Of a stretch of DNA of 64,000 bases, positions 28,976 to 61,887 are shown in pieces (the stretch's first letter is position 1; each line of letters starts with the position of its first letter). The translations under genes were made by a program, and so were the position numbers. The notes under the pieces were generated by a model. That model saw only the letters and a program-made list of their open reading frames with translations, was not told where the DNA came from and made no database searches. The stretch spans positions 1 through 64,000 of the forward strand of contig JAGMCR010000015.1 in assembly GCA_023129115.1 (NCBI GenBank). Direction: 5' to 3'. The DNA is from Candidatus Iainarchaeum sp. GTDB taxonomy: Archaea; B1Sed10-29; WALL01.

Positions 28976-29052
28976 TTCTTTTATAGTTACGTCGAGAACC
29001 CATGGTGTGGGGGGGCCATGCTTATAAATATGTGTTTTGATAATGTGTTTGT

Positions 29053-32630: not shown

Positions 32631-32713
32631 CTTTTATCCCTCCACCGCATTACCTGTACTCGATGCCAACCTGGTCCCACTCCCGCATTTCGGCGAGTGA
32701 GTCCCTGCCCCCC
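32631..32713 (+). pseudogene. Promoter plus 5' remnant of the PD-(D/E)XK nuclease gene
   Basis: ATG 32663 reads MPTWSHSRISASES.. versus MPTWSHSRISTYENCP at 49136. Confidence 0.9.
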
Positions 32714-35138: not shown

Positions 35139-35221
35139 ACGCTTTTATCCCTCTACCGCATTACTTGTACTCGATGCCAACCTGGTCCCGCTCCCGCGTT
35201 TCGGCGCACGAGTCCCTGCCC
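35139..35221 (+). pseudogene. Promoter plus 5' remnant of the PD-(D/E)XK nuclease gene
   Basis: ATG 35174 reads MPTWSRSRVSAHES..; upstream sequence nearly the same as the 32631 copy. Confidence 0.9.
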
Positions 35222-42963: not shown

Positions 42964-44214
42964 ATGTCTATTGACACTCGCTTGGAAGCGCTTCTTGTTG
43001 GTGAGCTGCGGGGCGAGAACAAGAAGGTCCAGAAGCTGTGCATGGACTGGCTTAAGAAGGCCTCGAAAAAGCACAATATTTGGAACGGGCACGCCGAGGC
43101 AGTCATGATTCTTCTGGGGCACCCGCTCGTCAAGACTGATAAAGAAAACATGATGAAGGTCTTGTTGAGGGACACGGCTGACGTGGACCTCAATTTCTTG
43201 TTGAACGTGGGCCCGGCGTTAGCGACGCAGATGAGGCCCCGGGACGTCCCACGGGCGCTGAAGATGGGCTCACAGCTCTACGCGAAGAGGGGCAGCCCTG
43301 AGCACGACCCTGATTTTTTGAGGGGGATTAGGGATATGGCTCGTTCAGAGGGCGGGCTGGTGAAGCTCGAGAACGCCAACAGGATTGGAAACCACATCAT
43401 GAGCCTGGCACCCCAGCATGAGCCAAACATGATTCCTTATATCCAGAGCCTTGGCCAGGAAATGCCCGAGCAACTGGGATTTATCGCGAGCCTGCAGCAC
43501 GTGAAGACGCCTTCGTCGTACTTGTGGCAGCACAACCAGTTACTGAAGACGTTGTCGCGGTACGTGGTTGAGGGTAGGATTGGCGCGGGTGAAATGAAGA
43601 AGTTGGGCGGCCGGTTGATTGATTTGCCGCCGCCGATGGCGTTGACTGCGTTGGCGACGCGGGTGCTTCCTGCGGTGGAGAGTGGTAGTGACTTGAAGCC
43701 TGTGTTGCACGAGCTTGGGCTGAAGCGCGAGAAGAAGCGGCTTGCTGAGGAAACGGTTGCGGAGAACGAGAGGTTCGAGGAGGCGATGCGCAGCATTTGG
43801 CGGGGGAAGCAGGTGAAGCGCGAGGAGTTCGTGAAGGCAGTGAACCACGTTATTGACCATTGCGTTAAGGAATTGAAAATCATTAACGCGGAGTTCAGTG
43901 GCTTGAATTTTGTGTTGGCTCCTGTGGCTGCTCACGAGGCGGATGTTCGTGCGGGCCAGATTTACTCTATTTTGTATGGTTGTGACTTGCGTGGGTTGCT
44001 TGAGAAAGAGGACGTAAAAAAATTCACTAAGCGGATTTTGCGTGAGGTGCATCCGGGTGGCAAGCACGAGGGGTTGAAGCCCGTGTACAAAAAGTGGTTT
44101 CCGATGCTCAGCTACCGGCTTGAGGAAGGCGTGCGTGCTGACAGGGAAGTGTACTTAATCCCGAAGCACCCCGAGTCAATCAAGCGCAAAAAAACAAAGC
44201 GATTAAAGAAATAA
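42964..44214 (+). CDS. Hypothetical helical protein (cargo)
   Basis: ATG about 25 nt after CTTTTATCC; its stop overlaps the ATG of the nuclease remnant. Confidence 0.75.
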   Translation: MSIDTRLEALLVGELRGENKKVQKLCMDWLKKASKKHNIWNGHAEAVMILLGHPLVKTDKENMMKVLLRDTADVDLNFLLNVGPALATQMRPRDVPRALKMGSQLYAKRGSPEHDPDFLRGIRDMARSEGGLVKLENANRIGNHIMSLAPQHEPNMIPYIQSLGQEMPEQLGFIASLQHVKTPSSYLWQHNQLLKTLSRYVVEGRIGAGEMKKLGGRLIDLPPPMALTALATRVLPAVESGSDLKPVLHELGLKREKKRLAEETVAENERFEEAMRSIWRGKQVKREEFVKAVNHVIDHCVKELKIINAEFSGLNFVLAPVAAHEADVRAGQIYSILYGCDLRGLLEKEDVKKFTKRILREVHPGGKHEGLKPVYKKWFPMLSYRLEEGVRADREVYLIPKHPESIKRKKTKRLKK

Positions 44215-44276
44215 TGCCCACTTGGTCCCACAGCAGAATCAGCATTTACGAGTCCTGCCCCCTCAACTTCAGCTGA
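44214..44276 (+). pseudogene. 5' remnant of the nuclease gene
   Basis: MPTWSHSRISIYESCPLNFS* matches the nuclease N-terminus at 16 of 20 aa with many synonymous changes. Confidence 0.92.
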
Positions 44277-45472: not shown

Positions 45473-45682
45473 TTAATCCAAAATATTCTTGATGTCACTC
45501 AAACTGTTTTCCAAATCAGTGATATTCTGGGTTATGTCCTGTTCTACATCGGCAACATCTGGTTCGATTGTTGGCTCAGGTGTCGGGGTTGGCGTTGAGG
45601 CCTCTTCTGTGCCACTTATACATCCCATCATAAAAACCATGCAAATAATGGTTGAAACAGCAAATAATTTCCGCATATTCAT
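45473..45682 (-). CDS. Small lipoprotein
   Basis: MMGC lipobox; PT linker. Confidence 0.7.
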   Translation of the reverse strand: MNMRKLFAVSTIICMVFMMGCISGTEEASTPTPTPEPTIEPDVADVEQDITQNITDLENSLSDIKNILD

Positions 45683-46983: not shown

Positions 46984-47062
46984 AGAAACACCCGGGTTTA
47001 AGGGAGGGCTTTTCTGGTATTTACGGGTTTTGGTAACCATTAAATTCCCCCTCCACCTATCC

Positions 47063-47120
47063 CTATCCAATGCCTATCTGGCTCCACTCCCGCATTTCGG
47101 CGAGTGAGTCCCTGCCCCCC
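47063..47120 (+). pseudogene. 5' remnant of the nuclease gene
   Basis: CTATCCAATGCC is identical to the intact start context; reads MPIWLHSRISASES..; 3' part identical to the 32663 remnant. Confidence 0.88.
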
Positions 47121-47183
47121 TGTTTTTGATATTTAAACCCCTCCAATAACTTTAAAAAGGGTGTTTTTGTGAACCTGTTCTTA

Positions 47184-47272
47184 GTGCTCGAGGCGTTTGC
47201 GTATCGGCCCTTGGGTTTTACGCGCACGCGCTTGCGACGGCACTCGCCCGGGGCTTTGGGTCCCGGGCTTTT
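47184..47272 (+). ncRNA. Candidate small RNA convergent with a DUF3800-like gene
   Basis: TATA-like box upstream; long GUGC...GCAC hairpin; GCCCGGGGC-UUUGG-GUCCCGGGC plus UUUU ending at the stop of the opposite gene. Confidence 0.65.
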
Positions 47273-47958
47273 CACTTTATTTCTCTTAGCGCTACGCGGT
47301 TGAGCCGCTGGTTTTTGGAGCGGGCGAGAGAGTACATGCCCAGCATTATGTCGGCGGCCTGGACTTCGGGCGATGACTGTGAGCCAATCGAGCCGGACAG
47401 CTTGATCCTTCTGCCGTTTTTGCGGTAAGCGGATAGTGAAGTGCTGTGTTTTTTACGGATTGGCGCAATGTAGGCACCCACCACAGCAAATGAGAGGTTG
47501 GACAAGAGTTCGCTTAGGAATATGTTGGATGGGCGTTGTGAGGAGGGGCTGGGGCTTGGAACCAATGCGTCAAAGTCCGTGTCCGGCACGACTGTAATAC
47601 TGTCAGTGCGTTCGTTGATTAAGTAGCCAATGTCTGCAGCGATGGCGGCGGGGCATTCTTTGAGGTAGTAGTTTCTTCTTGATTTTTCGCCTCTTGTTGC
47701 CAAGAATATGATTGCCCTGAGCCCGAGTGCCTCAAGGGCGTTGTGGTGTTCGGCCAGTATGCGCTCCCTCAGTGGCGCTTTTATGTGTTTCCAGTGGATG
47801 CTGCCGGTGTAGCCGTTCAAGCGAGCGGTGGATTCAATGCTGGAAACAAAGCGGTTGATTGCTTCCGGGCTTCCGACTACTGCACAGATGAGTCTCCGCC
47901 CTTTGCTGTGCCTGCCCTTGTCTTTTGACGTGTCGATGCCGACAGCAATGTTTCCCAC
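47272..47958 (-). CDS. DUF3800-like (RNase H fold) protein
   Basis: N-terminal VGIDTS, IHWK, VVPD, C-terminal EVQAADIMLG. Confidence 0.65.
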   Translation of the reverse strand: MGNIAVGIDTSKDKGRHSKGRRLICAVVGSPEAINRFVSSIESTARLNGYTGSIHWKHIKAPLRERILAEHHNALEALGLRAIIFLATRGEKSRRNYYLKECPAAIAADIGYLINERTDSITVVPDTDFDALVPSPSPSSQRPSNIFLSELLSNLSFAVVGAYIAPIRKKHSTSLSAYRKNGRRIKLSGSIGSQSSPEVQAADIMLGMYSLARSKNQRLNRVALREIK

Positions 47959-48051
47959 TGGCCTTAAACACGATTGGACGCCTTAAAAACGGCTTTGCAT
48001 TTGCCTTGCCGAGGCCCCGCAGAGGCAGGAAAAGGTTTTTATCCCGCTTCG

Positions 48052-49077
48052 TCAGGTTTCGTCCGCGCCGCCACCCCACCCGTATGTGGGACCCTCATCA
48101 TCAACTTCTGCAGTGTCTGCTGAGCCCTCGAGGAACCCCGCGCCCCTAGATTTTTTTGGCTTGTCTGGCATGTTTGTGCCGTCAATGTTTCCACCCGAAA
48201 TGGGGTGTATCATCCTTCCGCCTTTGCGTATCTCCATGCCATCAATGTTTCCACCAGAAATCGGGTGAGGGCTGTCTTTTGGCTCACCAGGGTATACCGT
48301 TTCGCTGCGCGTCCCCCCTATGCTGCTGCCCCACTGGATTTTTTCTTTGGGCTTGCTCGGCTTGGCCGGGGCTTTGGTTGCCGGCAGCGTGGAAGCGCTA
48401 CTGTATCTCGAGGGCCTGTCGTCGAGTGCATCCCGCCGTGGCTTTTCCCAGTCCTTTGTCTGGGGGTATGTGGCTGGCCGGGGGAGTGGTGGAGGAGGCA
48501 TATCTACTTTTATGCCGTGGAAGGCGAGGACTGCAAGTAGTTCTCTTTGCATTTCAGGAGAAAGTTTTCGTATTCTGAGGACGAGGTCTTTTTTGTCGAG
48601 GTTTTTGAGGTCTTCGAAGGTCGCTTGTTTGGCGGATTGTTGGCGCTGGGCTTGGGCTGCTTGTTGGCGCGCGACTAGGTATTCGCGCAGTCGGTCGGCG
48701 TTTCTTATGTACACTGGGTTGGGGTGGACTTTGGCTGCTTCTTCGTATTTGGCGAGTGCTTCTTTGTATCGCCCGGCGTCGTGGAGATTGATTCCTTCGT
48801 TGTGGATGCGGCGGGCGAGTTGCTTGGCAGTGGGCGGACCGTACCCCAGTACTTTCCGGATTCTGCTGTCGTATTCTTGGCGTAGTGTTTTGAGTACGGG
48901 GCTGTCCGGATACATTCTTTCTACTCGTATGAGCAGCCGGATCGCGTCAGTCTCCATCCCCTTCTTGAACAAGCGCTTGAAGTCACCTTCACACTTTTCC
49001 GGTGAATAGGTGCCCCTCTTCATCTGTGATTTTCGGACCACGCCCCGAATGCCTTCCCCAATCTCCTTCAGCACCAT
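48052..49077 (-). CDS. TPR-containing hypothetical protein (cargo nearest the anchor)
   Basis: HNEGINLHDAGRYKEALAKYEEAAKVHP; repeated HPISGGNIDG. Confidence 0.75.
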   Translation of the reverse strand: MVLKEIGEGIRGVVRKSQMKRGTYSPEKCEGDFKRLFKKGMETDAIRLLIRVERMYPDSPVLKTLRQEYDSRIRKVLGYGPPTAKQLARRIHNEGINLHDAGRYKEALAKYEEAAKVHPNPVYIRNADRLREYLVARQQAAQAQRQQSAKQATFEDLKNLDKKDLVLRIRKLSPEMQRELLAVLAFHGIKVDMPPPPLPRPATYPQTKDWEKPRRDALDDRPSRYSSASTLPATKAPAKPSKPKEKIQWGSSIGGTRSETVYPGEPKDSPHPISGGNIDGMEIRKGGRMIHPISGGNIDGTNMPDKPKKSRGAGFLEGSADTAEVDDEGPTYGWGGGADET

Positions 49078-49135
49078 TCAACCACAACTAACGCACCCAA
49101 AACACTTAAAACTAACGCCCACCTTTAGCTATCCA

Positions 49136-50284
49136 ATGCCCACCTGGAGCCATAGTAGAATCTCGACGTACGAGAATTGCCCCCTGAAATTTTATTACAC
49201 TTACGTCGAGAAGCCGGACGTGGAGGAGGTATTGGGTGACAATATCGCTCTTGTGCTGGGCAAGAGCTGTCACGAGGCGCTCGAGTGGCTGTACAAAGAG
49301 CTGTCCTTCGGCCGGGAGCCGTCCCTGGACGACGCCATCGACTATTATACCCAATCCTGGGGCAAGATGTGGACTCCGGACGTGATTATCCCCCGTTTTG
49401 ACGAAAAAACGTGGAAAAAGCTTGGCATCCGGTACCTCGGCGACTTTTACAACCGGCACTCGCCGTTTATCGAGGACCGTACCGTGGCCCTCGAGAGAAT
49501 GGTTCGCCTTAAAATCGGCAAGTACTCGTTAATCGGGTATATTGACCGTGTTGCCGAGGCTTCTCCGGGCCACTACAAAATCATTGATTACAAGACGACT
49601 AAGAGGCTTCAGGGGCAGGACTGGTTTGACAGTGACCGCCAGCTCGCTCTCTACGAAATTGGCTTGCGCCAGATGTTCAGGGACGTGGAGGAGGTGGACC
49701 TCGTGTGGCACATGCTTCACTTCAACAAGGAGATTGTTTCTCGCCGGACTCCGGGGCAGCTGGAGCAGTTGAAGAGTGACACGATTGAATTGATTAGTAC
49801 TATTGAGGCTGCTGAAGAGTATCCCGCCAAAGTGTGTGGGCTTTGCCCGTGGTGCAGCTTCCAAGAAATCTGTCCCAAAAAAAAGCACGAGCGCGCCACC
49901 ACGCGCATGACCGTCCGCGAGTTCCGCAGGGACGAGGGCGTTCGCGTGGCGAACAAGTTTGTGCAGACGAAGCTGAAGCTGGACGAGTGGGGGATAAAGA
50001 ACGCGGACGCGCGGAAGGACGTGCTGGCGTATTCGAAGCAGCACGACACCAGCAAAGTCATTGGGTCGAAGGCGGCTGTGGCCGTCTCGACGATGAAGAG
50101 GGTATCGTTCGACCCCAAAGTGGAGAAATTGTTGAAGAAAGAGGGGTTGTGGGAGAAGTACTCGAAGTTGGATTCTGCTGCTCTTGTGCGTGAGCTTGAG
50201 GGCCTTGACCCGAAAATCAGGGGAAAGCTTGTCAAGCTTGAGGAGACTAAAGAGTCTAAAGCTGTGCGTGTTGTGAAGAAGTGA
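49136..50284 (+). CDS. PD-(D/E)XK nuclease (PDDEXK_1; Cas4/AddB-like, Fe-S Cys pattern); anchor of the array
   Basis: SHSRISTYENCP, G..H, GYIDRV, IIDYKT, QLALY, CGLCPWCSFQEICP; start moved to ATG 49136. Confidence 0.92.
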   Translation: MPTWSHSRISTYENCPLKFYYTYVEKPDVEEVLGDNIALVLGKSCHEALEWLYKELSFGREPSLDDAIDYYTQSWGKMWTPDVIIPRFDEKTWKKLGIRYLGDFYNRHSPFIEDRTVALERMVRLKIGKYSLIGYIDRVAEASPGHYKIIDYKTTKRLQGQDWFDSDRQLALYEIGLRQMFRDVEEVDLVWHMLHFNKEIVSRRTPGQLEQLKSDTIELISTIEAAEEYPAKVCGLCPWCSFQEICPKKKHERATTRMTVREFRRDEGVRVANKFVQTKLKLDEWGIKNADARKDVLAYSKQHDTSKVIGSKAAVAVSTMKRVSFDPKVEKLLKKEGLWEKYSKLDSAALVRELEGLDPKIRGKLVKLEETKESKAVRVVKK

Positions 50285-50333
50285 AACGCTTTTATTCTTT
50301 GTCTTCGTTTTGTTTTGTGTGGAGTTGAGGTGA

Positions 50334-51833
50334 ATGCCTAGGAAGAAACACACGGCCGTGCGCCACCCGGACATTGAGTTGGGGGTCAAGAGGGTTACTG
50401 ACGGGAGCATCGAAAAGCTCACTGATGCGAGGGGGGAGCCTTTCACTAGGTCCGAACGCATCAAATTGATGGCGGGCGACCGCAAGGTCTTCGGGAAGGG
50501 CATTGAGGAATTGTTTGACAAGGCAATCAGGGAACTGAAAAAGATTCCTAAGGAAAAGATGGAGCGGCGGAAGCTGATTTACGAGGGCTTGCTCGGCGAG
50601 GTGGAGTCCAAGCTCAAGATTGGTGACTCCGACCGGTTTTTGGCGCACGAAATGATGGTCCAGACTGATTTGGGCAGCATGGTCAAGGCGATTGCGCAGG
50701 GGTCGGACATTAATTTGGACACTGTTGACACCCAAGCAGTGGACAAGGCGGTTGGTACCGCGAGGGACATGTATTACGGCACGAATAAGACAAAGGACGA
50801 GGCCTTGACGAAGAGCCTTGAGGTCTTGATGGCGGACGAGGGCGTCTCGAAGCAGTTCGATGGGGAGTGGGAGGTGGCCGCGCACTTGTCGCCCAAGGAC
50901 CGGGCAAGGTTTTTGATGGCTGTGATGCACAAGGACGATTACTTGATACACCAATTAATCCAGCAGAGGGACGAGAACAAGGAAATGACCAAGGACCAGC
51001 TCCAAAGCATGCTGGATAATTTTGGTTTAACTGAAAAAGATTTTTCGAAGAAAGAGTTGGAGGAGTTGGGGGTTACTATTCACATGGGCAAGAACAAAGA
51101 GATTTTGTTGGACATGGCCAAGATTCTTATCATGGCTGACCTGGACCCCCACAAGCTTTTGGAGTTGCCCAAAGAAGAGAAGCGCACTGCTGTGCTCAGC
51201 ATTTTTTCTCATGAAGCCCTTGACCCCTTGAAGGTGCTGCAGAAGCTTCCTTCTGTCGCGAGGGGCTTGGCGTTGAGGTCTCTTGAGGGCATAAGCAAAA
51301 ATGCTAAGGAGGGGGACAAGGAGGCCAAAGACATGCATAGGTCCAGCCTTATGCTGCACAGCCTTAACATACACAACCCGAGGGAGCGGGAGGCCTTGGC
51401 CGAGATTGTGGCGCTTGCTGACGATAGTGCTGAGTGGGACAAAGAGCTGTCCGCCAGCATAATCAAGAGGCATGGGCTGGAGAAAGAAGCCGAGTTCAAC
51501 AGGTACATGGTGAACCTACGGGACATTGTCGACCAGCCGGCCCACTTCAACCGCTTTTTGGAGCTGGCGTGGGACTTGGATGACAAGGACAAAGTTGGGG
51601 AGATTGGCTTTGACGCGTCGAACCCTGACCACAAAAAGGCGTTCATGAAGATTAGGGGCGAGCTCTTGAAGATAAAGCTTGGCAGTGGGGGCCTCAAGGA
51701 CAATAACGCCGAGGCCGTGGAAAAGCGGGTGCTGACGGAAATGGGCTTGCTCGAAGAAGTCACGAAAAGGCGCAAAAAGAAAGAAAAAAGCGAGAAACGC
51801 GTCAAAGAGCGGTGGAAAAACATTTACGCTTGA
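50334..51833 (+). CDS. Hypothetical helical protein (cargo)
   Basis: GAGGTGA RBS; stop overlaps the nuclease 3' remnant. Confidence 0.8.
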   Translation: MPRKKHTAVRHPDIELGVKRVTDGSIEKLTDARGEPFTRSERIKLMAGDRKVFGKGIEELFDKAIRELKKIPKEKMERRKLIYEGLLGEVESKLKIGDSDRFLAHEMMVQTDLGSMVKAIAQGSDINLDTVDTQAVDKAVGTARDMYYGTNKTKDEALTKSLEVLMADEGVSKQFDGEWEVAAHLSPKDRARFLMAVMHKDDYLIHQLIQQRDENKEMTKDQLQSMLDNFGLTEKDFSKKELEELGVTIHMGKNKEILLDMAKILIMADLDPHKLLELPKEEKRTAVLSIFSHEALDPLKVLQKLPSVARGLALRSLEGISKNAKEGDKEAKDMHRSSLMLHSLNIHNPREREALAEIVALADDSAEWDKELSASIIKRHGLEKEAEFNRYMVNLRDIVDQPAHFNRFLELAWDLDDKDKVGEIGFDASNPDHKKAFMKIRGELLKIKLGSGGLKDNNAEAVEKRVLTEMGLLEEVTKRRKKKEKSEKRVKERWKNIYA

Positions 51834-51876
51834 GGAGACTAAGGAGTCTAAAGCTGTGCGTGTTGTGAAGAAGTAG
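51828..51876 (+). pseudogene. 3' remnant 1 of the nuclease gene
   Basis: LEETKESKAVRVVKK*; 46 of 49 nt identical to the gene end (one synonymous change, TGA to TAG). Confidence 0.95.
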
Positions 51877-52401
51877 GTGATGTTAATGGCGGGTAAAAAA
51901 AAGAAAAAGGGAAAAGCTTTTCAGGCTCTGCCTGAGAAATGGGTGAAGCCGTTGAGGGAGCTTGACGTGTACAGTGCCTTGGTCAAGGTGCTGGGGTTGA
52001 CGTTGTTGGGGGTTTTCCTCTATTCCTGGTTGTGGGCACCAGACGAGAGGTGGATTGTAGTGCTGCCCCTCGCGTTCGCTTCGATTTCACTGGGTAATTT
52101 GCTCCCGATAGCCGTTGGCAATTTGTTGGGGAACAAGTGGGGGAAGAAAGCGCCGTGGCAGGGCTTCGCTGTTTTAGTGACTGCGTATTCGGTGGTGTGG
52201 TCCGTGGTTGTGTGGCTCTTTAGCCGGTTGAACGCCGGTTTAATCGCGACTGTTTTGGGCCTAATCCTGTTCTACTCCATCTTCCAGTCTTATTACCAGA
52301 CGAGCCACAAGCACGCGGTATACGCGGCACTCTTGTTTGGCCTGCTATTGCCGGCTTTGGTGCTCGGGATGCTGATGGGCATGATAGGGGCGTTGCCGTA
52401 A
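51877..52401 (+). CDS. Membrane protein, paralogue of 25466-25981
   Basis: Shared motifs; about 5 TM segments. Confidence 0.8.
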   Translation: MMLMAGKKKKKGKAFQALPEKWVKPLRELDVYSALVKVLGLTLLGVFLYSWLWAPDERWIVVLPLAFASISLGNLLPIAVGNLLGNKWGKKAPWQGFAVLVTAYSVVWSVVVWLFSRLNAGLIATVLGLILFYSIFQSYYQTSHKHAVYAALLFGLLLPALVLGMLMGMIGALP

Positions 52402-52403
52402 CC

Positions 52404-52504
52404 CGGGAACTTGTGGGCTGTAATCCGGGGCTGAAGAAGAAGCTTGAGGAAACAAAAGAGTCTTTGTCTGTGCGTGTTGTGAGGAAGTGAAACGCTTTTA
52501 TTCT
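52404..52504 (+). pseudogene. 3' remnant 2 of the nuclease gene plus downstream promoter
   Basis: RELVGCNPGLKKKLEETKESLSVRVVRK* followed by AACGCTTTTATTCT, as after the intact gene. Confidence 0.92.
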
Positions 52505-52526
52505 GCTGCCTGCTTATCCATTAGTG

Positions 52527-53255
52527 ATGGCAGTGAGTAAGTTTGATTGGAGTTCAGTGGATTTGGAGGGCCCGGAGGCAGTGGGCCGCATTGCTGAGAA
52601 CGTTTCGTTAAGGGAAATTGACAAGCACTTGGAGGCGGGCAACGAGGCGCTTAGGAATAGTGAGGGTGCTGGCGTCCAGGCCGTGTTGGCGGCGGCTTTC
52701 GGTGGCGTGGACGAGGTGAATGCCGCCAATCTCCCGAAGGCGGTGGAGGGTGTTGCTGAGGGCCGGGCTAAGCTGAAGAGGATTATGGGTGTTCTTTCCG
52801 AGGCCAGGGAGAGGCGGGAGGAAGTGGTGGCAAGCGATGCGCGGAGGTATGCGCGCGAGAACGACTTGTTCAGTGTCCACAAGAAGCTGAACAGTGTTGA
52901 GGAAGCGCTTTTGGGCACGCGTGGGGGCCAGGCCGCTGATGCGGAGGTCATCCAGCGGAGTAATATGCACAGGGTTTTCATGCAGCGGCTTGCCGAAGAA
53001 AAAGCGGTGCCTGTTGCTGGTGGAGTGGCTCTTGCTCGCCTGAGGGAGATGGATGCGGCGCTTGAGAGGGACGTCAAGCGCTTTCGGAGGGGTCGGCTGG
53101 ACAAGGCGTTGGAGCGTGCGGCCGGGTTCCAGGGCCTTGTGCGGCAGCGCATCGAGCTCACTGAGAAGGCTTCGGTGCTCAAGTCCCCCAAACGCTCCAC
53201 GGGGAAGAAGCGCGGGTTCGTAATGGCGCAGCCAAAAGAAAAGCCAAGAAAGTAA
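52527..53255 (+). CDS. Hypothetical protein (cargo)
   Basis: ATG about 25 nt after TTTTATT; stop overlaps remnant 3. Confidence 0.75.
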   Translation: MAVSKFDWSSVDLEGPEAVGRIAENVSLREIDKHLEAGNEALRNSEGAGVQAVLAAAFGGVDEVNAANLPKAVEGVAEGRAKLKRIMGVLSEARERREEVVASDARRYARENDLFSVHKKLNSVEEALLGTRGGQAADAEVIQRSNMHRVFMQRLAEEKAVPVAGGVALARLREMDAALERDVKRFRRGRLDKALERAAGFQGLVRQRIELTEKASVLKSPKRSTGKKRGFVMAQPKEKPRK

Positions 53256-53280
53256 GGCTGTTAGGGTGGTTAAGAAATAA
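53248..53280 (+). pseudogene. 3' remnant 3 of the nuclease gene
   Basis: ESKAVRVVKK* with mostly synonymous codon swaps. Confidence 0.85.
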
Positions 53281-53301
53281 ACTTCTTTCTAGTGACTAAC
53301 T

Positions 53302-53895
53302 TTACAAAAGAAAAAGCTCGCGGAATGTGAACGATAAATCCATCATCAAAAAATAGAAGTAATACTGCAGTACAGTATGATACAATTTTTTACGTTTGTT
53401 TGTCCCTCTCACCTTCTTAATTTTTGCGAACATCTTTTTCAAAGAGGGGTTAGGAATCTTTTCTAGATCTTCCATAGTATAGTCTAATCTGTGGGCGTAT
53501 TGGTTTCTAAGATAATTCACGAACTTAAGCTCCCGATAGAGCTCATTATCCAGAATACCCAAAGCGGAAATTATCTCTAGCTTTAGGTAATACCTTTCAT
53601 CTAGTAGCCTTTTTGGGTTTTTTAATCTTTTAGTTATGATTGCATCTAAAAAACGTTCAAAATACAGGTGCATAACCAAAACTAGATGCAACGTGTTTTG
53701 TATCTCTAAAACATCTTTAAAAAATTTCCTTCCCAAAACCCTAGTCTTTTTTGGAAGACGAGAACGAATAATATCCTGCGTGGCCTCACTAGTTAGTATA
53801 AACTTTTTTGTCCAAGGCATATCTGTCTCGATAGTCCTAGCCATCGCCTTTAATATGCCTAGTGACCTATCTGGGACAGGGTACCATTTTGTCAT
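53302..53895 (-). CDS. MtlR/HEPN-like protein
   Basis: HLYFE..L, ALGIL, LRNQYAH (RxxxxH); low GC. Confidence 0.6.
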   Translation of the reverse strand: MTKWYPVPDRSLGILKAMARTIETDMPWTKKFILTSEATQDIIRSRLPKKTRVLGRKFFKDVLEIQNTLHLVLVMHLYFERFLDAIITKRLKNPKRLLDERYYLKLEIISALGILDNELYRELKFVNYLRNQYAHRLDYTMEDLEKIPNPSLKKMFAKIKKVRGTNKRKKLYHTVLQYYFYFLMMDLSFTFRELFLL

Positions 53896-53938
53896 AATTT
53901 GTTAATTCATATTGGCTATAAAAGGTTTTTGCCAAGAA

Positions 53939-54217
53939 CTAGCTCTTGGCTTTCATCCTCGCCCTAACCACCTTCTTCAGCGGCTCGACCCCATAGTCAT
54001 AGATATCGGGGATGTCCAGGTTCACGACTTTGCCATAGAACCGGAAGAAATGCTCCATTATGTACGTCTCGTGCTTTTTCTCGAACACGTACACCTTGTC
54101 GGCCCACTTCAGCGCCGCGTCCGTTAAGTCGTACATGCCGCAGTACTTGCCGCCGTACATCTCGGCCGCCGTGCGGCTCCGGTTCTCGCCGGCCGTGCAG
54201 ACGAAGAGGAGGTTCAT
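53939..54217 (-). CDS. Low-molecular-weight phosphotyrosine phosphatase-like protein
   Basis: LLFVCTAGENRSRTA (CX5R); WAD; LDIPD. Confidence 0.85.
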   Translation of the reverse strand: MNLLFVCTAGENRSRTAAEMYGGKYCGMYDLTDAALKWADKVYVFEKKHETYIMEHFFRFYGKVVNLDIPDIYDYGVEPLKKVVRARMKAKS

Positions 54218-54819
54218 TTTTTCCTCTGGGACAGGGTAAATTTTACATAGTTGTATTCATCTATAACTTTAGCTAGTGGTGTTTGTTTACTCCGCCATAG
54301 CACGCCACCAAACTCCTCTTGCATTTCTTTGAGAAATCCCAAGTAATCATTTGCTGTGGGTTGTGATTTTTTTATTCCATAGTGTCGCCTGATATTGGTG
54401 TCCCACATTACGAAGAGGGCGGGGTTGAATATACTCATAACTTTGGAAGAGCCAGTGTATTTTACTCCCGGAACCTTGGAAAGCTCTGCATAAATCTTCT
54501 TGATATCGGAGCCCAAACCATCATTCTCATCGAGGTTAGCTGTTTGTAATGTTTCTTTTTTGAGTTTCTTGAAAATAGGAAGACATGTCTTGATAGCATT
54601 TTCGAGTTGACCGAGAGTCTCTTTTTCAGAAGAGAGGTAATGGAACCGCGCTTTATTCCATGTGGCAAGTATCACTATGGCTGCTTGTAGGGGATAGTCC
54701 TCAACTGCCTCACAGGCAACGCAGTAAAAATTGACTCGTCCTTCTCTCTTAGTAAATTTTTTGTGGGCACTTTTTAAGGAACCGCTAGTGTGTGGCATAG
54801 CCATCCAATACACGTCCAA
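54214..54819 (-). CDS. Hypothetical protein with an HhH-glycosylase-like motif
   Basis: LSKVPGVKYTGSSKVM..FNP.LFVMWD. Confidence 0.55.
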   Translation of the reverse strand: MDVYWMAMPHTSGSLKSAHKKFTKREGRVNFYCVACEAVEDYPLQAAIVILATWNKARFHYLSSEKETLGQLENAIKTCLPIFKKLKKETLQTANLDENDGLGSDIKKIYAELSKVPGVKYTGSSKVMSIFNPALFVMWDTNIRRHYGIKKSQPTANDYLGFLKEMQEEFGGVLWRSKQTPLAKVIDEYNYVKFTLSQRKK

Positions 54820-54860
54820 AACACTTAAATATAGCCCCGGGGTAGTTGATATCCACCTAG

Positions 54861-54977
54861 CTAAACGCGGGGGCGTTGGCGAGGGAGCTTGATGGGCTTG
54901 ACGAGGGGCTGAGGAAGAAGCTGGAAAAACTTGAGGAGACTAAGGAGAGTAAGGCTGTTAGGGTGGTTAGAAAATGA
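54861..54977 (+). pseudogene. 3' remnant 4 of the nuclease gene
   Basis: LNAGALARELDGLDEGLRKKLEKLEETKESKAVRVVRK* versus LDSAALVRELEGLDPKIRGKLVKLEETKESKAVRVVKK*; ATGA overlap with the RM gene. Confidence 0.95.
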
Positions 54978-57900
54978 CTGAGAAAGAACAACTGGCCGGG
55001 GAGCCCTTATTTAACAAGTTAGTTGTTGAATTTCAATTGCGGAGTTTTGATAGACCTCTACATTCCTTTGGAAAAGAGCAAAAAACTGAATATGAATTAT
55101 TTAAATCGACGGTTCTTGATGATTTGCCAGAAGTTCTGATGGGAGATATTGGGAAAGAGAACCCAACCGTCATAGCCCAGTATCTGTCTGGGACAGAGGA
55201 GAATGTTAAGAATAAAGTGATAGAACCTTTACTATGCCAGTTTTTAGGGTTTAAGAAAAAACAATTTCAGTATGAACCTGCAGTTAGAATGGAAGATGGA
55301 ACAGGCCATATAGATATCGTAATCAACGTAGATCCAAAATACAAGATATTAGTAGAAACAAAGAGTTGGAGGACTGATCTCAATAAACGGGTGGGAAAAT
55401 ACAAGAAAAGTGCCATCGTCCAAGCATTTGAGTATGCTGAAGCACACGGGATCAATTGGGTAGTTGTGACAAATGGCTATGAACTGCGGCTATATAATCG
55501 TAAAGAAGGTAGTACAAAATATGAGAAGTTCCTTTTAGATGATCTAAACAACCCTCTGGCAGTTGGTAGAACATCGGCTTTCCATCCTAAGAGAGTTTAT
55601 ACCCTATTATCCAATGAGTCTTTTGTTAGCCGAATCCAAGATAAGATATTGGAGCAAAGTGAGGAACACCTAAATGATTTAGGGGAATACATCTATGAAG
55701 TGATAAAGGAACTACGGAATGAATTGGCTAATAACATACTCCGTAAAGACAAACAAATAATCCAGAGGTATATGGAATCTTCAGGACTAACTGAAAAGCA
55801 GAGTAATCAGCTTGTTTTGGATATAATACAAACGTTCATAGATAGATTAATCTTCATTCGCTTTGCAGAGGGCAGGGGGCTTCTACCTGAACCCTATGAC
55901 GCAAACTTTACAGCTCACTTAAAGGAGCTCTGGCAGACAGCAAGAGCGGATATACCAGATTTAACGTTTTTTGATTACCTAAGAAAACTATTTAGAAAGA
56001 TTGATGAAGGCAACTTCAAAGACCCAAACCGGCGATTCTTTGGCTATAATGGTGGACTTTTTGCCCCTAACACCATTCTAGACAATCCCCACTTCCAGAT
56101 AGACGACCACGTAGTTTGGGATGTCATATTGAGATTAAATAAATATGCGCCGAAAAAAAAGACAAAAAAGATTAAACATTTGATGTTAGAAAAAAATGAG
56201 AAGATCAACTTCTCTGAAGTTCCAGTGGAGGTTCTTGGACATATTTATGAAAAGTACTTAGGTCTATCCATTGACCTAGATTGGAAGAGTATCCACCCCA
56301 AAGTCATAATCGACGAGACTAAAGAAAAAAGAAAGGAAGCTGGAGTGTATTACACGCCCAAACATATCACAGAGTACATAGTTAAAAATACTGTTGGAAG
56401 CTTTTTGAAAGAAAATCTAGATAGGTTAGATAACATAAACGTGGTCGATCCAGCTTGTGGTTCTGGGACCTTTTTGCTAAGCGCTTACGAATATTTGTTT
56501 GATAACCAGATTGAAACAACCGCTCTTTCAGATAAGTCACTTAAAAGTTACGTTGTCAGAATCAAAAAACTAATCAAGATACTCAGTCAAAGAGATACCG
56601 CCATCAAAGACAAGGAAAAACTTGCGGAAAAGGTTGGCCTTTCTTTGTTCGAAATAAACAATACTATCCAAGACCTGCTCGGAAAGAACATTCTTCTTAT
56701 AAGCCCAGACGGGTATTATCGACTATCCCCCAAAATGTATGATAAAGAGATGATAAACGAGGACTTACTAACGCAGTATTTGAAAAGTAAGTTACGTTTC
56801 CTTGCTTTAGATATGGTTACAAACAAAAAAAAGGTGCACATAAACGAACATATACTGAAAACTAATCTTCATGGGGTGGATCTCCAATCTCGTGCTGTTG
56901 AAATAACAAAACTGAGCTTATGGCTTAAAACGGCGATCAAGAACGCAAAACTCATAAATCTTGGCACGCAGATTCTAGAAGGTAACTCTCTGATAACGGG
57001 TGTTGAAGGCCCAGAGGAACTGAAGCAGTTCAAAACGGAACTAAATGAAATAATTAAATTAGAAGAACATCTTGAAAGCTTAGATGAAACAAAAGAGTCT
57101 CACCAAAAAATACGCAAACTAGTCAATGAAATAAAATCTGATAAGAAAGAACTTGTTGAGTTATTGGATAAAAACCTTGTTAAAGAGGATGACGAAGGTT
57201 ATTTTGACAATATAAAAAACATAAAACCGTTTGACTGGGAAGTTGAGTTTCCGACCGTATTTGATGATGGGAATAATCCCGGATTTGATGTTGTTATTGG
57301 TAACCCACCATATAGCGCTAAGTTGTCTAAAGCGGAAAGAGGCTATATACGGGATACTTACCCCGCAACAAAAGGAAACACGGATACAGCTATAGCATTT
57401 ATCAACCATGCGTATACCTTATTAAAAAAAGGTGGTTATCTCGGTTTTATTGTGCCAAAATCGCTTTTGTACAGTGATACGTGGGTGGCATGTCGAGAGT
57501 TTATTTTACCGGATCTAGTGAAACTGGTCGATGTTAGCAAGGCTTTTGAGGGTGTCCGGCTTGAACAAGTTATTATAATCCTAAAGAAAGGCAGTGCTTC
57601 AAAGACTTACGCAATTGAATTTTTGGGTTCCACAAAACATCACGAAATAAAAAAGAGCAACTTGAAGAAATTCGGTATAATCCTTAATGAGATTGGACAA
57701 GACGAATTAAAACTCGGCCTGAATCTTTCGGGTAAAGCTAGACTCTCTGACGTTGCTGATTTAGAACGCGGACTGGGCCTACAAGATGAGCTCTCTCAGA
57801 CAGGATCTAAACGGATTTATGGTGGTTCCAGTGTTGGGAGATTCTTACTAAAACCTACGGATAGGTTCATAAGCAGCACTACCTACGCAAAACATGCGAA

Positions 57901-58387
57901 TAAACTACGTGTACAAGAAACTCCTAAGGTTATAATGCAGAACATCGTTGCCCACGTAACCAAACCGAAGGACCACTTGCTGTTTATCTCAACATTTGAT
58001 TATGAGGGGATCTTAACTTTAGATACGGTTGTGAACATCAGTCCCAAAGCGGATTTCGACCCGTTTGTTTTAGTGGGAATACTCAATTCTAAACTATTTT
58101 CTTGGTATGCGTACCGATTCATTTACGCCAAAGCAATAAGAAATATGCATTTTGACAAATGCCATCTGAATAAATCGCCTTTGTGTAAGCTCCCAATCAA
58201 CAAAAGAGTTTATAACCGATTGAGATCTTTGGTTGATGAATGCTGCACTATAGGGAAAAATGGTCAAATCCCCAAAAATCTTGAAGAAGAATGGTCTACA
58301 AAAGAAAAGGAAATAAACGAATTAGTTTATGAGGCGTATGGGCTTGGTAGAGAGGACAGCAAAATTATAGAGCGTAGTTTCCGTTAA
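54974..58387 (+). CDS. Type IIG (Eco57I-like) restriction-modification fusion enzyme
   Basis: N-terminal D..ETK..Q...Y..TNG nuclease; YNGGLF, LGHIYE, GVYYTP, DPACGSG, IGNPPY; TaqI-like C-terminus GILNS. Confidence 0.92.
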   Translation: MTEKEQLAGEPLFNKLVVEFQLRSFDRPLHSFGKEQKTEYELFKSTVLDDLPEVLMGDIGKENPTVIAQYLSGTEENVKNKVIEPLLCQFLGFKKKQFQYEPAVRMEDGTGHIDIVINVDPKYKILVETKSWRTDLNKRVGKYKKSAIVQAFEYAEAHGINWVVVTNGYELRLYNRKEGSTKYEKFLLDDLNNPLAVGRTSAFHPKRVYTLLSNESFVSRIQDKILEQSEEHLNDLGEYIYEVIKELRNELANNILRKDKQIIQRYMESSGLTEKQSNQLVLDIIQTFIDRLIFIRFAEGRGLLPEPYDANFTAHLKELWQTARADIPDLTFFDYLRKLFRKIDEGNFKDPNRRFFGYNGGLFAPNTILDNPHFQIDDHVVWDVILRLNKYAPKKKTKKIKHLMLEKNEKINFSEVPVEVLGHIYEKYLGLSIDLDWKSIHPKVIIDETKEKRKEAGVYYTPKHITEYIVKNTVGSFLKENLDRLDNINVVDPACGSGTFLLSAYEYLFDNQIETTALSDKSLKSYVVRIKKLIKILSQRDTAIKDKEKLAEKVGLSLFEINNTIQDLLGKNILLISPDGYYRLSPKMYDKEMINEDLLTQYLKSKLRFLALDMVTNKKKVHINEHILKTNLHGVDLQSRAVEITKLSLWLKTAIKNAKLINLGTQILEGNSLITGVEGPEELKQFKTELNEIIKLEEHLESLDETKESHQKIRKLVNEIKSDKKELVELLDKNLVKEDDEGYFDNIKNIKPFDWEVEFPTVFDDGNNPGFDVVIGNPPYSAKLSKAERGYIRDTYPATKGNTDTAIAFINHAYTLLKKGGYLGFIVPKSLLYSDTWVACREFILPDLVKLVDVSKAFEGVRLEQVIIILKKGSASKTYAIEFLGSTKHHEIKKSNLKKFGIILNEIGQDELKLGLNLSGKARLSDVADLERGLGLQDELSQTGSKRIYGGSSVGRFLLKPTDRFISSTTYAKHANKLRVQETPKVIMQNIVAHVTKPKDHLLFISTFDYEGILTLDTVVNISPKADFDPFVLVGILNSKLFSWYAYRFIYAKAIRNMHFDKCHLNKSPLCKLPINKRVYNRLRSLVDECCTIGKNGQIPKNLEEEWSTKEKEINELVYEAYGLGREDSKIIERSFR

Positions 58388-58938: not shown

Positions 58939-59712
58939 GTGTTAAATGAACTGGAAGAGTACTATAAGGGCCAAGGCATATACTCTATTGGTTTCCATTG
59001 TAAACATCTTGAGTCATGCCTCTCAAAAGTAGATAACCCCCATGAGTTCACTAAAGGTAAAGCTGCTTATGTAGGCCAAAAATATGAAGAGGGGCTCGTG
59101 CCCCGGCTGCTCTTCTTATCACTAGATGCAGGCGCACAGAACGAAGATCCTGTCAAACGAACACTTATTGGGGTTAGGGGAGAAACTGAAAAAAACCCCT
59201 TAACTGATGGCAAACACAAACACTGGTATAAAACACATGAATTTGCTTGTAGTGTGTTTAATGAGCTTTGTGGTGAAAAACGGTTTGGTGTACACCAAAT
59301 AAAACCGTATTTTGCTCATACTAATAGTGCCAAATGTTGTATGAATAACCCCCATAATGCGGAAGCAAACTCTACTTTGTTCCACAATTGTAGGGAGTAT
59401 ATCCTGCCTGAAATTGAAATCTTGGCACCAGAAGTGGTTGTAACACAAGGGAATCGCGCGTGGGACGTCATTGCCACAGAATTAAACAAGAAAATAACTC
59501 CATTATCAAAAGAGATGAACCTATCCCACAACCCAGACTACGATTTAAGAGAGATTGAGTACCCAAAAAATAAAAGAGTTATGTGGGTTCATCACTACCA
59601 CCCCCGCAGTGGGAGGTACTTTGCTAAAAATCTTGAGAAGTATGAAGTATATGCAAAAGAAATCGCTACTTTTTTAAGAAAACATTATCCAAAAAAAGTT
59701 AAGAATGTGTAG
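58939..59712 (+). CDS. Uracil-DNA glycosylase superfamily protein
   Basis: LFLSLD, TNSAKC, NC..Y...EIEIL.PEVVVTQG, HHYHP. Confidence 0.7.
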   Translation: MLNELEEYYKGQGIYSIGFHCKHLESCLSKVDNPHEFTKGKAAYVGQKYEEGLVPRLLFLSLDAGAQNEDPVKRTLIGVRGETEKNPLTDGKHKHWYKTHEFACSVFNELCGEKRFGVHQIKPYFAHTNSAKCCMNNPHNAEANSTLFHNCREYILPEIEILAPEVVVTQGNRAWDVIATELNKKITPLSKEMNLSHNPDYDLREIEYPKNKRVMWVHHYHPRSGRYFAKNLEKYEVYAKEIATFLRKHYPKKVKNV

Positions 59713-59954: not shown

Positions 59955-60038
59955 TCAACACCACACCGCCTTCCTATACCCCTCACCCTCCGCTTGTTGA
60001 GCCGTCTCGAACCAAACCCTGTTCTCCGGCTTAATCCT
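59955..60038 (-). pseudogene. 3' remnant 1 of the Ada-domain gene
   Basis: RIKPENRVWFETAQQAEGEGYRKAVWC* versus RIKPENRIYFDNTVEAEDAGYRKALVC*. Confidence 0.92.
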
Positions 60039-61887
60039 TAACCCTTTGATTTAAGTTTTTTACAAACTCGACATAAAGTGGGTATCTTTCTTTTACTTGG
60101 GAGATACTTTTATTTTTGATGTCCAAAATAACCGCTCTCACGATTTGTTTCTTTAACTCTTCAAGACGCCCATCTGTATGGATTTTTTCTCGTTTTTTTA
60201 TCGTTTTTATGTGACTAAGAATCGCTGCATCACCCGGAGAATTAAACGTATATCCGTACAGTTTATTTGCAAGGGATAGGACAATCTCCTCAGGTAATAA
60301 GTCCTCTGTAGTAGCTTTAGGTTTAGGTACGTCAACGAGGTCCTTTAATTCAAAAGTCTTGTTTTTGAAGGCTGTGTCGGTAGTGACAATAGTTCTTTTG
60401 ACACCTTGACCGTCTTTATCTGAGTCAACTACTACAAACCCTTTCACTAATTTTTGATCAAAGAACTTGGCGTATCTAGGTATTTGTTTTACTCCCGTTG
60501 CAAAGATTGTTTTTATTCGAGAGGGTTTAATCTTAGTTTTAAATTTCCGGGTGAATGTATCAAATAAGTCTTTATCAATTCTTCCTTCAAATATGATGAC
60601 ATTTGGCTCAATGAGTTCATAAATCGTTGTACCGAGTGCTTCGTATATTACCTCTTCTTGGAGGGGGTCGTCTCTACTAACTCTCTGGATTTTGGTTTCG
60701 CCGTTTTCCTTAATCACGTTATAATGGCGGTCTATGTCTTTTTTATCTACCATAAATATTGAATGTGATGCGCAAAATACTATGTTATTTTTCGCTATAT
60801 TCAGTAGTTCATCTCTAAGGTATCTCACGCTACTAGGATGTAAACTTCTTTCAGGTTCGTCAAGAAGGATGACTTTATTTCTCAGTTGGTTTATTTTGTT
60901 CTCAACTGAAAGAGTAAGTAGTATAGATATAAAATGCTGGAAACCATCACTCCGCTGTTTCATAGTAAACTTTGGCGTGACGTTATCTTTATCTTCTACA
61001 AAGACAATACATTGATTATTCGCTTCGAACCTTAGGGATATGTTAATCTTGTGTTCTGGCCATAACTCGTTTAAGTGTTTGGTTATCGCTTTTGATAATA
61101 TCCCTTCCATTTCAGCTCTATCTCCAGGACTTTTTTGTATCCGGTCTAGATTAGTGATTAAGGCCTCCCCCTCAAAACCCGCTAAGTGGAAAATATTCCT
61201 CAGAGGGATAGAAGTGTCTAGATTCTGTCTAAATTGCTCTAGATTAATTGGTTCATTTATTAAGTGTTTGGGGTCTGGTTTCCATAGAATCACTTCAGGC
61301 AGTAGGGCATCTAACTGTCCGCCTATTTGGGGTCCAACATTCTTACTTAAAATAGCTTCATCAAGCTTAGTATACCTATCATCTAAAGGGTCATTTAAAC
61401 GGTTTAAAATCTCCTTAGACTCATCGGACTTATCCAACGAAACTTCAAGCGAGATCTTATTCTTTTCGCTATCGTAAATAAAGTGGTCGTATTTGATTCC
61501 TCCAAAATGGAGGTTGTAACTGTCTTCCTTTTTCGAATTTTTATCAAATGAAACTAGTTTTTCAACTCCAGTTATCTTAATTTGCCGACGTAGCGAAGGA
61601 GGCCCATCAATCTTTTCAACAATCTTGGGGAGATCACCATCTTCTAATCCGAAAAGATAGTTTAGTTCAACCTTTTCGTTTTGAGAACGGGCTTTTTTGT
61701 TGCAGTCAACATCGTATTGGAAGTCTAATCCGCTCTGTAGGAGGCTTATGGCTCGCAGAATATTGCTTTTACCTGTTCCATTTATACCAAAAAACATGAA
61801 GCACTTTTTGTCAGCTATTTCTTCGATACTCACCTCTAAATCCTTTACACAACGATAATTAGATATCGTAATTTTCTTAAGTAACAT
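60031..61887 (-). CDS. OLD-family ABC ATPase plus TOPRIM nuclease (defence)
   Basis: GINGTGKS Walker A, RSDG, LLDEPE..LHP, SHS; TOPRIM IFEGRID and VDSD. Confidence 0.85.
   Translation of the reverse strand: MLLKKITISNYRCVKDLEVSIEEIADKKCFMFFGINGTGKSNILRAISLLQSGLDFQYDVDCNKKARSQNEKVELNYLFGLEDGDLPKIVEKIDGPPSLRRQIKITGVEKLVSFDKNSKKEDSYNLHFGGIKYDHFIYDSEKNKISLEVSLDKSDESKEILNRLNDPLDDRYTKLDEAILSKNVGPQIGGQLDALLPEVILWKPDPKHLINEPINLEQFRQNLDTSIPLRNIFHLAGFEGEALITNLDRIQKSPGDRAEMEGILSKAITKHLNELWPEHKINISLRFEANNQCIVFVEDKDNVTPKFTMKQRSDGFQHFISILLTLSVENKINQLRNKVILLDEPERSLHPSSVRYLRDELLNIAKNNIVFCASHSIFMVDKKDIDRHYNVIKENGETKIQRVSRDDPLQEEVIYEALGTTIYELIEPNVIIFEGRIDKDLFDTFTRKFKTKIKPSRIKTIFATGVKQIPRYAKFFDQKLVKGFVVVDSDKDGQGVKRTIVTTDTAFKNKTFELKDLVDVPKPKATTEDLLPEEIVLSLANKLYGYTFNSPGDAAILSHIKTIKKREKIHTDGRLEELKKQIVRAVILDIKNKSISQVKERYPLYVEFVKNLNQRVKD

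Follow-up and report, generated by a model that had tools for sequence, protein, structure and literature searches.

The window, by which we mean the whole 64,000-nucleotide (nt) stretch analysed here, comprises the initial 64 kb of contig C7 (74 kb) in the genome of Candidatus Iainarchaeum sp. (G000; 1.25 Mb in 19 contigs, 88.6% complete). It carries a gene for a Cas4-like PD-(D/E)XK nuclease, and behind this gene lies an array in which further copies of the gene's own 3' end alternate with short cassettes of other genes. The present end of the gene is termed R0, and the downstream copies are termed R1 to R4. The coordinates of all features are given in Table 1.

The nuclease matches PF12705 with an E value of 7e-29 and PADLOC Cas4 models with E values down to 2e-13, and the longest open reading frame (ORF) of its gene begins at 49010. 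Its homologues, which are found across many archaeal lineages, are approximately 400 amino acids (aa) long and align over most or all of the nuclease; relative to them, the gene is intact and full length. At the amino acid level, the nuclease is 81% identical to its orthologue in a sister species of the same genus, represented by a single-cell genome (G002). The distribution of the gene is patchy: it occurs in 9 of 61 sampled relatives and in 4 of 31 genomes of the class, and within the family it is confined to this genus. Only G000 and G002 possess end copies among the four gene-bearing genomes of the class (31 searched). A scan of the genome collection for close nuclease alleles returned G002 only, and among the 24 loci obtained from a metagenome scan, the sole close one was L026 (62% identity, on a 1.3-kb contig). 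End copies were present at none of six loci with distant orthologues (L006, L007, L009, L026, L027, and L028; flanks of 1–10 kb).

A six-frame scan of the window with the peptide LEETKESKAVRVVKK, the last 15 residues of the nuclease, yielded exactly five matches when up to five substitutions were allowed (R0, 50237–50281; R1, 51829–51873; R2, 52443–52487; R3, 53233–53277; R4, 54930–54974). All five lie on the plus strand and are terminated by a stop codon. The same repeat families were recovered by a direct-repeat search of the window. The E values from tblastn in the window are 4.9e-10 for R4, 2.6e-4 for R1, and 3.4e-4 for R2; R3 is weak by itself (0.72), yet it matches R4 at 28/31 nt. The copies begin at different points of the gene, approximately 15 (R1), 28 (R2), 10 (R3), and 38 (R4) codons before its end, and these points are thus up to 28 codons apart. 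R1 can be extended weakly to approximately 25 codons, since a similarity of 17/30 nt continues for about 30 nt to its left, beneath the end of the cassette 1 ORF.

Table 1. Features of the nuclease locus and of the rest of the window
Feature	Position	Strand	Basis or remark
Cas4-like PD-(D/E)XK nuclease; Cys motifs; 382 aa, counted from the conserved start MPTWSHS	49136..50284	+	Pfam, PADLOC, homologues
R0, present 3' end of the gene, stop TGA	50236..50284	+	14 nt past the stop (to 50298) also in R2
Cassette 1: one 499-aa ORF (50334-51833), no known family	50285..51827	+	TGA 51831-51833 inside R1
R1, last 15 codons and TAG, 46/49 nt identical to R0	51828..51876	+	repeat search, alignment
Cassette 2: 174-aa ORF, hydrophobic by inspection, no family match	51877..52403	+	TAA 52399-52401, 2 nt before R2
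R2, last 28 codons (3 codons missing in a gap), TGA	52404..52504 (coding to 52490)	+	includes 14 post-stop nt identical to those of R0
Cassette 3: 243-aa ORF (52524-53255), no family match	52505..53247	+	TAA 53253-53255 inside R3
R3, last 10 codons and TAA, allele class II	53248..53280	+	28/31 nt identical to R4
Cassette 4: three ORFs (53302-53895, 53939-54217, 54214-54819), GC 0.43-0.47	53281..54815	-	no match above curated cut-off
Copy of the nuclease promoter region (TCCAAAACACTTAAAT box) and decayed start region	54816..54856	+	alignment
R4, last 38 codons and TGA, allele class II	54861..54977	+	TGA overlaps ATG of next gene (ATGA)
Type IIG restriction-modification enzyme, MmeI/Eco57I-like, 1137 aa, GC ~0.38	54974..58387	+	Pfam, PADLOC
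UDG superfamily protein, low-GC cargo	58939..59712	+	PF03167, E 2e-6
OLD-family ATPase-TOPRIM nuclease, low-GC cargo	60031..61887	-	AAA_15, OLD-like_TOPRIM; PADLOC Old, E 3e-26
5'-end copy of the nuclease gene, start and ~17 codons, promoter-like box upstream	32663..32713	+	tblastn, E 2e-4
5'-end copy of the nuclease gene	35174..35221	+	tblastn, E 6e-4
5'-end copy of 19 codons, fused to a two-hairpin element variant	44214..44270	+	E 1e-5
5'-end copy, nearest to the nuclease gene	47070..47120	+	sequence searches
Archaeal RNase P RNA	14051-14318	-	Rfam RF00373, 107 bits

The cassettes are 0.5–1.6 kb long and are flanked by end copies of 33–117 nt; cassettes 1–3 are single ORFs of 0.5–1.5 kb. The gap between an end copy and its cargo measures 0–50 nt, and the GTG start of cassette 2 begins at the base directly after the R1 stop. 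Among 8000 scored candidates, the cassette 1 ORF matched only itself. Farther out, the cargo is of foreign composition and includes defence genes. The first of these, the restriction-modification (RM) gene, stands directly behind R4 and matches the Pfam families Eco57I, N6_Mtase, MmeI_N, and TaqI_C, as well as the PADLOC model REase_MTase_IIG (E 7e-51).

The nuclease locus is a hypervariable island, in which the G+C content drops from 0.58 to 0.37–0.53. Along C7, the G+C content (GC) is 0.55–0.66 up to approximately 29 kb and 0.37–0.58 thereafter, with 0.37–0.44 past 55 kb. Within the array, the GC of the cargo is approximately 0.50–0.56 up to 53.3 kb and 0.37–0.47 beyond it, a break that coincides with the division of the copies into two blocks. 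When translated C7 was compared with the 64.6-kb contig of G002, strong conservation was found only in the nuclease gene and an rRNA-like block (C7:73145 / G002 C6:35656); one small ORF (window 61971–62207) and some weak matches are also common to both. In the same comparison, cassettes 1–4 had no counterpart on the sister contig.

The arrangement is supported by the assemblies, with contigs available from three runs of a single study. In the probable source run (X1), a single 15.4-kb contig covers 51845–63000, that is, R1–R4 and the RM gene, with zero differences, and two more contigs cover 47212–50281 and 50253–51873. One 266-nt contig of run X2, with 3x depth, joins 51843 to 50252 through 31 shared nt. 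It might represent a circle or tandem of cassette 1 or, equally likely, a graph artefact, and we did not count it as evidence; the stretch shared at the joint is as long as the assembler word, which we take to be 31.

Allelic origin of the 3'-end copies

The copies fall into two allele classes, one formed by R0, R1, and R2 and the other by R3 and R4. Neighbouring copies are identical at 46/49 nt for R0/R1, 39/47 for R1/R2 (blastn), only approximately 17/33 for R2/R3, and 28/31 for R3/R4. The classes are also apparent at the codon level, as R3 and R4 read AGT AAG GCT GTT AGG GTG GTT where R0, R1, and R2 read TCT AAA/TTG GCT/TCT GTG CGT GTT GTG. An earlier note on this DNA had described a polarised series. 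R1 is indeed the copy most like R0, and R3 and R4 are indeed diverged, but there is no smooth gradient between them.

The three differences between R0 and R1, which the earlier note had counted correctly, consist of one AAA/AAG change and two changes that turn TGA into TAG. These two copies contain a 31-nt identical block and are the only ones to share such a block. R2 is identical to R0 at 58/65 nt and is a mosaic of R0-like stretches and stretches resembling G002 and R4. In addition, the 14 post-stop nt common to R0 and R2 contain a TTTTAT box.

To describe the divergence, the proportions of synonymous (pS) and nonsynonymous (pN) differences were counted according to Nei and Gojobori, and 50,000 simulations were run with an equal number of random substitutions. 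Relative to R0, R3 is changed at 10/30 nt and at 0/10 residues, and R4 is changed at 42/114 nt and at 11/38 residues. In none of the 50,000 simulations was the peptide conserved as well as it is in R3 and R4. For the 38 codons of R4 and R0, pS is 0.81 and pN is 0.23, with a ratio of 0.28, and the excess of synonymous over nonsynonymous change is significant (Fisher test, p = 8e-8). For the whole intact gene in G000 and G002, pS is 0.53 and pN is 0.15, again with a ratio of 0.28. The substitutions in R3 and R4 are therefore not random with respect to codon position but show a strong synonymous bias. The codon comparison likewise bore out the statement that the peptide is kept while codons are swapped, including a TCT/AGT serine switch and differing stop codons.

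Because only one close genome is available, the phylogeny of the remnants was reduced to pairwise distances. Over 114 nt, R4 is identical to R0 at 72 positions, to G002 at 77, and to L026 at 60, and R0 is identical to G002 at 75; the identities with L026 range from 60 to 69. Judged by these distances, the source of R4 was probably about as distant as another species of the genus. Moreover, an intact orthologue resembling one of the remnants exists. R2 departs from R0 at two residues (K to L and A to S; ESLSVRVV), and at both of them the intact G002 gene has the R2 residue, encoded by the same codons (TCT TTG TCT GTG). R2 has too few changes for a test of its own (p = 0.09 to 0.16), and R1, with one synonymous change in 15 codons, is uninformative (p = 0.23).

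Collectively, these patterns support the view that R3 and R4 are the ends of alleles that diverged while functional in related lineages. The claim that the remnants come from formerly functional alleles and not from local duplicates is thus upheld for R3 and R4 by the simulations and the pN/pS ratio, and the codons of R2 agree with it, while R1 does not bear on it. If the copies had arisen by local duplication of the gene end, through slippage or unequal crossing-over, and had then decayed, one would expect changes at all codon positions. Since the peptide was kept despite the nucleotide divergence, such an origin can be set aside for R3 and R4, which differ almost only at synonymous sites and are as distant as the allele of another species; on the same substitution counts it appears unlikely for R2 and is left open for R1. 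R1 lies only 3/49 nt from the gene end and says nothing on selection, which would suit a local duplicate, but the copies are also separated by different foreign cargo. For the array as a whole, we regard local duplication as very improbable. Likewise, the layout of an expressed gene followed by partial 3' copies recalls silent cassettes that would switch the C-terminus, as in phase or antigenic variation. However, the peptide is nearly unchanged (0/10 residues in R3 and 1/15 in R4), so switching would alter nothing, and we find this explanation scarcely credible.

Copies of the 5' end and other arrays in the genome

Copies of the 5' end of the nuclease gene lie upstream of it on the same strand, four in G000 and eight or nine on the G002 contig. 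Several are cut at codons 7, 10, 13, and 19 and are joined to a two-hairpin element. The copies at 32663, 35174, and 47070 share nonsynonymous changes (STYESCP to SASESLP, with the Cys lost) and were therefore either copied from one another or derived from a degenerate lineage. No similarity gradient toward the gene is seen among the 5' copies, unlike on the 3' side.

The intact gene itself is a mosaic. Between G000 and G002, pS by segment is 0.77, 0.22, 0.42, 0.77, 0.44, and 0.61; it falls from 0.77 in codons 1–22 to 0.22 in codons 23–80, and the break lies where the 5' copies stop. This mosaic suggests that recombination may be frequent inside the nuclease gene, beyond its ends.

The two-hairpin element (CAGCT[T/G]AAACT[A/C]AGCTG, GCACGTT, and a GC-rich hairpin) has 21 copies on 10 contigs of G000, with copies in the window at 13925 and 28918, and it is absent from the 3' array. 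When flanks were read by eye, some of the elements were found directly after the stop codon of genes outside any array. The element behaves like a genome-wide terminator-like or REP-like sequence and is not confined to cassettes. It matched no Rfam family; the only Rfam match in the window is RNase P RNA. At the left edge of the island (28906–28998), a truncated promoter box is followed by the element (28918–28975) and then by a 23-nt nuclease piece. This piece (28976–28998) resembles nuclease codons 19–26, is 91% identical to the G002 gene, and is the complement of what the 5' copies keep.

Near the gene, contigs of run X1 (depth 18) and run X2 (depth 6) pass directly from 47120 to 47978 and omit 857 nt with a 228-aa ORF (47272–47958); only 30 nt of these contigs lie on the shorter side of the join. 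This join may represent a strain variant without the cassette or a repeat artefact, as a 40-nt repeat of 47978–48017 occurs at 33324.

A genome-wide search for short direct repeats revealed further arrays. Behind the PCNA gene (C9:62222–62971; Pfam PCNA_N and PCNA_C), two copies of its last approximately 20 codons lie at 65091 (frameshifted) and 66254, the latter differing only at four synonymous positions and in the stop codon. The two remnants start no more than 2 nt apart. They flank a gene for a PT-rich surface protein and a nucleotidyltransferase-HEPN (MNT-HEPN) pair, where GC dips to 0.45. No integrase was found near this array, and no PCNA end copies were found in the DNA examined from G001, G002, and G004. 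A possible third PCNA trace of eight residues lies right behind the first cargo ORF. On contig C12, four copies of approximately 40 nt, which by eye resemble a tRNA 3' end, occur at 74931, 83599, 84832, and 92840 around a tyrosine recombinase gene (78765).

Proposed insertion at the gene end and its alternatives

We favour serial, target-restoring insertion driven by homology in the end of the nuclease gene, a proposal in which we place about half of our confidence. Under the recombination route, order of events, and cargo expression that we infer, an incoming piece would bring a new gene end, derived from a related strain or species, and directly behind it a cargo gene. After recombination, the gene would be whole again, the cargo would lie just behind it, and the former end would be pushed outward. 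The driver would be the general homologous recombination of the host, for which the conserved gene end would supply the homology arm; a dedicated integrase would not take part. A circularised fragment might enter by a single crossover, a cassette already lying between two end copies might enter by a double crossover, or a piece might enter by one homologous and one illegitimate join. The last of these routes has one homologous and one illegitimate end, as does homology-facilitated illegitimate recombination (PMC3240628). The right-hand join might be a second crossover with an end copy behind the cargo, the closure point of a circle, or an illegitimate join. Recombination would remove copies that are long or identical and leave only short, diverged ones; the synonymously diverged remnants might have survived because the gene can no longer recombine with them. 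The cargo runs in the same direction as the gene and follows the preceding stop closely, so that the nuclease promoter or copies of it could drive its expression. Since the same behaviour is observed at the 5' end and at the PCNA gene, the process appears to be general.

Alternatively, the array could consist of integrase-mediated islands, in which several small elements, each with its own attachment site (att) over the 3' end of the gene, would have inserted in tandem. This streamlined genome would since have lost their integrase genes and the bulk of their other content, or the integrase would act in trans. Integrases offer the known route to target restoration with a displaced fragment at the island end (PMC4383910). 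The 31-nt identical block of R0 and R1, the nearly coincident starts of the PCNA remnants, and the tRNA 3'-end copies around the sole PF00589 gene of the genome would all suit such an origin. However, no tyrosine or serine recombinase or Y1 transposase was found on C7. In the genome as assembled (88.6% complete), a search with PF00589 gave one match, on C12, and none on C7; PF00239 (serine recombinase) and Y1 transposases gave no match, and TnpB matches were confined to C3 and C13. A recombinase domain was found in none of the 40 C7 ORFs scanned with Pfam (25971–73062), mobility genes were not detected among the cassettes with Pfam or PADLOC, and none of the four cassette borders coincided with an inverted repeat, although 10 pairs were found in 50200–55100. 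Moreover, cassettes 1–3 are single ORFs, the remnant starts are scattered over the gene end, and the peptide rather than the DNA is conserved (10/30 nt differ between R0 and R3), unlike a DNA-specific att site. We consider this origin unlikely.

The R4 locus points in another direction. A copy of the nuclease promoter region lies 19–45 nt ahead of R4, and its TCCAAAACACTTAAAT box is common to the nuclease gene and three 5' copies of G002. At the expected spacing follows a decayed start, in which 9 of 12 positions match ATGCCCACCTGG. Because of this promoter copy and decayed start, R4 looks like a whole gene copy that lacks codons 5 to approximately −39. Such remains could be left if larger blocks or circular elements with a complete nuclease gene had recombined within the resident gene, thereby creating full copies in tandem, and if internal deletions had then spared only the ends of the extra copies. 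The R4 locus, with its promoter copy, approximately four decayed start codons, and last 38 codons, would be expected from this process, as would the position of 5'-only and 3'-only fragments on the respective sides of the intact gene, the patchy occurrence of the nuclease in the manner of an accessory or mobile gene, and the pS mosaic of the gene. In contrast, no trace of a promoter or start precedes R1, R2, or R3, the longest remnant comprises only 38 codons, and a relative of the nuclease is encoded in none of 133 candidate stretches of viral contigs. Deletion of whole copies is thus a rather improbable origin of the array in our view.

Several observations weigh against serial insertion at the gene end. 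First, R2 and R3, which flank cassette 3, are alike at only approximately half of their positions (17/33 nt). The cassette 3 junction therefore did not come from a homologous crossover in an end copy, and an illegitimate join or the replacement of a larger block is needed. Combined with the change in GC at 53.3 kb, this mismatch points to one or more block replacements, in which the class I gene with cassettes 1–3 would have been placed over a resident class II locus. Second, the promoter copy and decayed start of R4 are better explained by a complete second copy of the gene that later underwent internal deletion than by mere displacement of an end. Third, neither a strain with an empty site nor another order of cassettes was seen, with one close genome available for comparison, and in that genome (G002) the DNA behind the gene is unrelated and carries no 3' copies over 16 kb. 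Fourth, the intact gene does show a higher pS at its 3' end (0.61, up from 0.44), yet this change is less pronounced than the break near its 5' end and is not clear-cut. Finally, the C12 repeats would form a classical tandem array of the integrase type, so that integrase-type events probably occur in the same organism, and a trans-acting recombinase could be encoded in unassembled sequence or belong to an unrecognised family, as many island ORFs are without a family.

Based on the proposed insertion process, it is plausible that the array order is the order of acquisition, with the newest cassette next to the gene. The ranking by similarity to R0 fits this order (R1, 46/49; R2, 58/65; R3 and R4, approximately two-thirds). 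However, a decay gradient is absent, and the farthest copy, R4, is the longest and best kept, which counts against a chronological reading. Two blocks, or the transfer of a block, account for the similarity ranking equally well. The comparison with a CRISPR array made in the earlier note holds only as an analogy of layout. A CRISPR array has identical short repeats, spacers from invaders, and Cas1-Cas2; here, the repeats are diverged coding fragments of 33–117 nt and the "spacers" are whole genes, and Cas1 was not searched for.

On a broader and doubtful reading, the nuclease gene would be an integrase-free hub for gene capture with landing sites at both ends, where homology would insert any DNA bearing a fitting gene end and an adjoining gene and would displace the old end. 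Defence and surface genes would accrue there in order of arrival, and the displaced ends would name the donor lineages. The nuclease might process the ends of incoming DNA and thereby favour its own gene, and PCNA and possibly other genes would be minor platforms. If so, this would explain the fast turnover of defence and surface genes in ultra-small archaeal genomes with few mobile-element genes. The displaced ends would serve as markers of the allele lineage of each cassette, and with enough genomes, they would yield an order of arrival, which can seldom be reconstructed for genes gained by horizontal transfer. The hub would also extend to archaea the insertion with long target duplication, a phenomenon documented for many years in bacterial RM genes and one for which we know of no established mechanism.

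In comparison with known systems, the array is closest in outcome to Islander- and TIGER-class islands, which occupy the ends of tRNA, tmRNA, or protein genes and in which the target gene is likewise regenerated, a displaced fragment remains at the far end, and fragments stack outward. Those islands contain their integrase and have a fixed crossover start with a shared block of DNA. In contrast, C7 has no integrase, the inserts are single genes, the fragments vary in length, the peptide is conserved, and 5' fragments are present too. The insertions surveyed by Furuta et al. 2010 (PMC2853133) are shorter than 20 kb, bounded by direct repeats longer than 30 bp that sometimes overlap the 3' end of a gene, and free of mobility genes, with RM genes among their cargo; according to that paper, no archaeal case passed its screen. 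The size of the cassettes, the length of the copies around them, and the lack of detected mobility genes agree with this type. The repeats of this type are near-identical copies of one target; in the array, R0/R1 and R3/R4 are similar pairs, R2 and R3 appear to be different alleles, and the inserts are stacked in an archaeal host.

Integron arrays are similarly compact, with mostly single-ORF cassettes that are co-oriented with the anchor and able to use its promoter, and the newest cassette is presumed to be nearest to it. Unlike integrons, the C7 array has no IntI-type integrase, attI, or attC hairpins, and its repeat is a piece of coding sequence. In rhs and cdiA genes, a new 3' part reportedly recombines through shared upstream sequence, and the former 3' part is orphaned downstream, where orphans are said to stack in order. 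The incoming tip in those genes is the variable, functional part, a toxin with its immunity gene. The nuclease array, in contrast, keeps the same tip and gains an unrelated gene after it, and the cassette ORFs match no family. Displacement of C-termini in rhs genes is treated by Jackson et al. 2009 (PMC2935791). A non-exhaustive search of the literature found no arrays like that of C7 in these archaea. What appears new is the combination of a protein-coding anchor that is arrayed at both ends, allelic repeats, single-gene cassettes, and a very small archaeal genome.

Other features of the island and the contig

Most of the 40 ORFs of C7 that were scanned with Pfam have no match. The rest encode regulators, TPR proteins, defence genes, and an HTH-NUMOD3-Vsr-like endonuclease. 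The latter, a 324-aa homing-endonuclease-like protein (HTH, NUMOD3, Vsr/DUF559-like; C7:72088–73062), abuts the rRNA-like block at the end of the contig. No tRNA genes were found in the 64-kb window.

A 463-aa protein with a long PT-rich repeat is encoded on the minus strand at 45679–47070. In its repeat region (46202–46802), the contig depth reaches 330–455 in all three runs, probably due to low-complexity repeats of other organisms.

Beyond the window, three copies of approximately 110 nt with 88–92% identity are located between small genes at C7:67240, 68535, and 71950, and a partial fourth copy lies at 69614. The unit, as seen in C7:67240–72064, consists of a conserved stretch that resembles a gene end, the two-hairpin element, and a promoter box. 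These units may form another cassette series of the same island.

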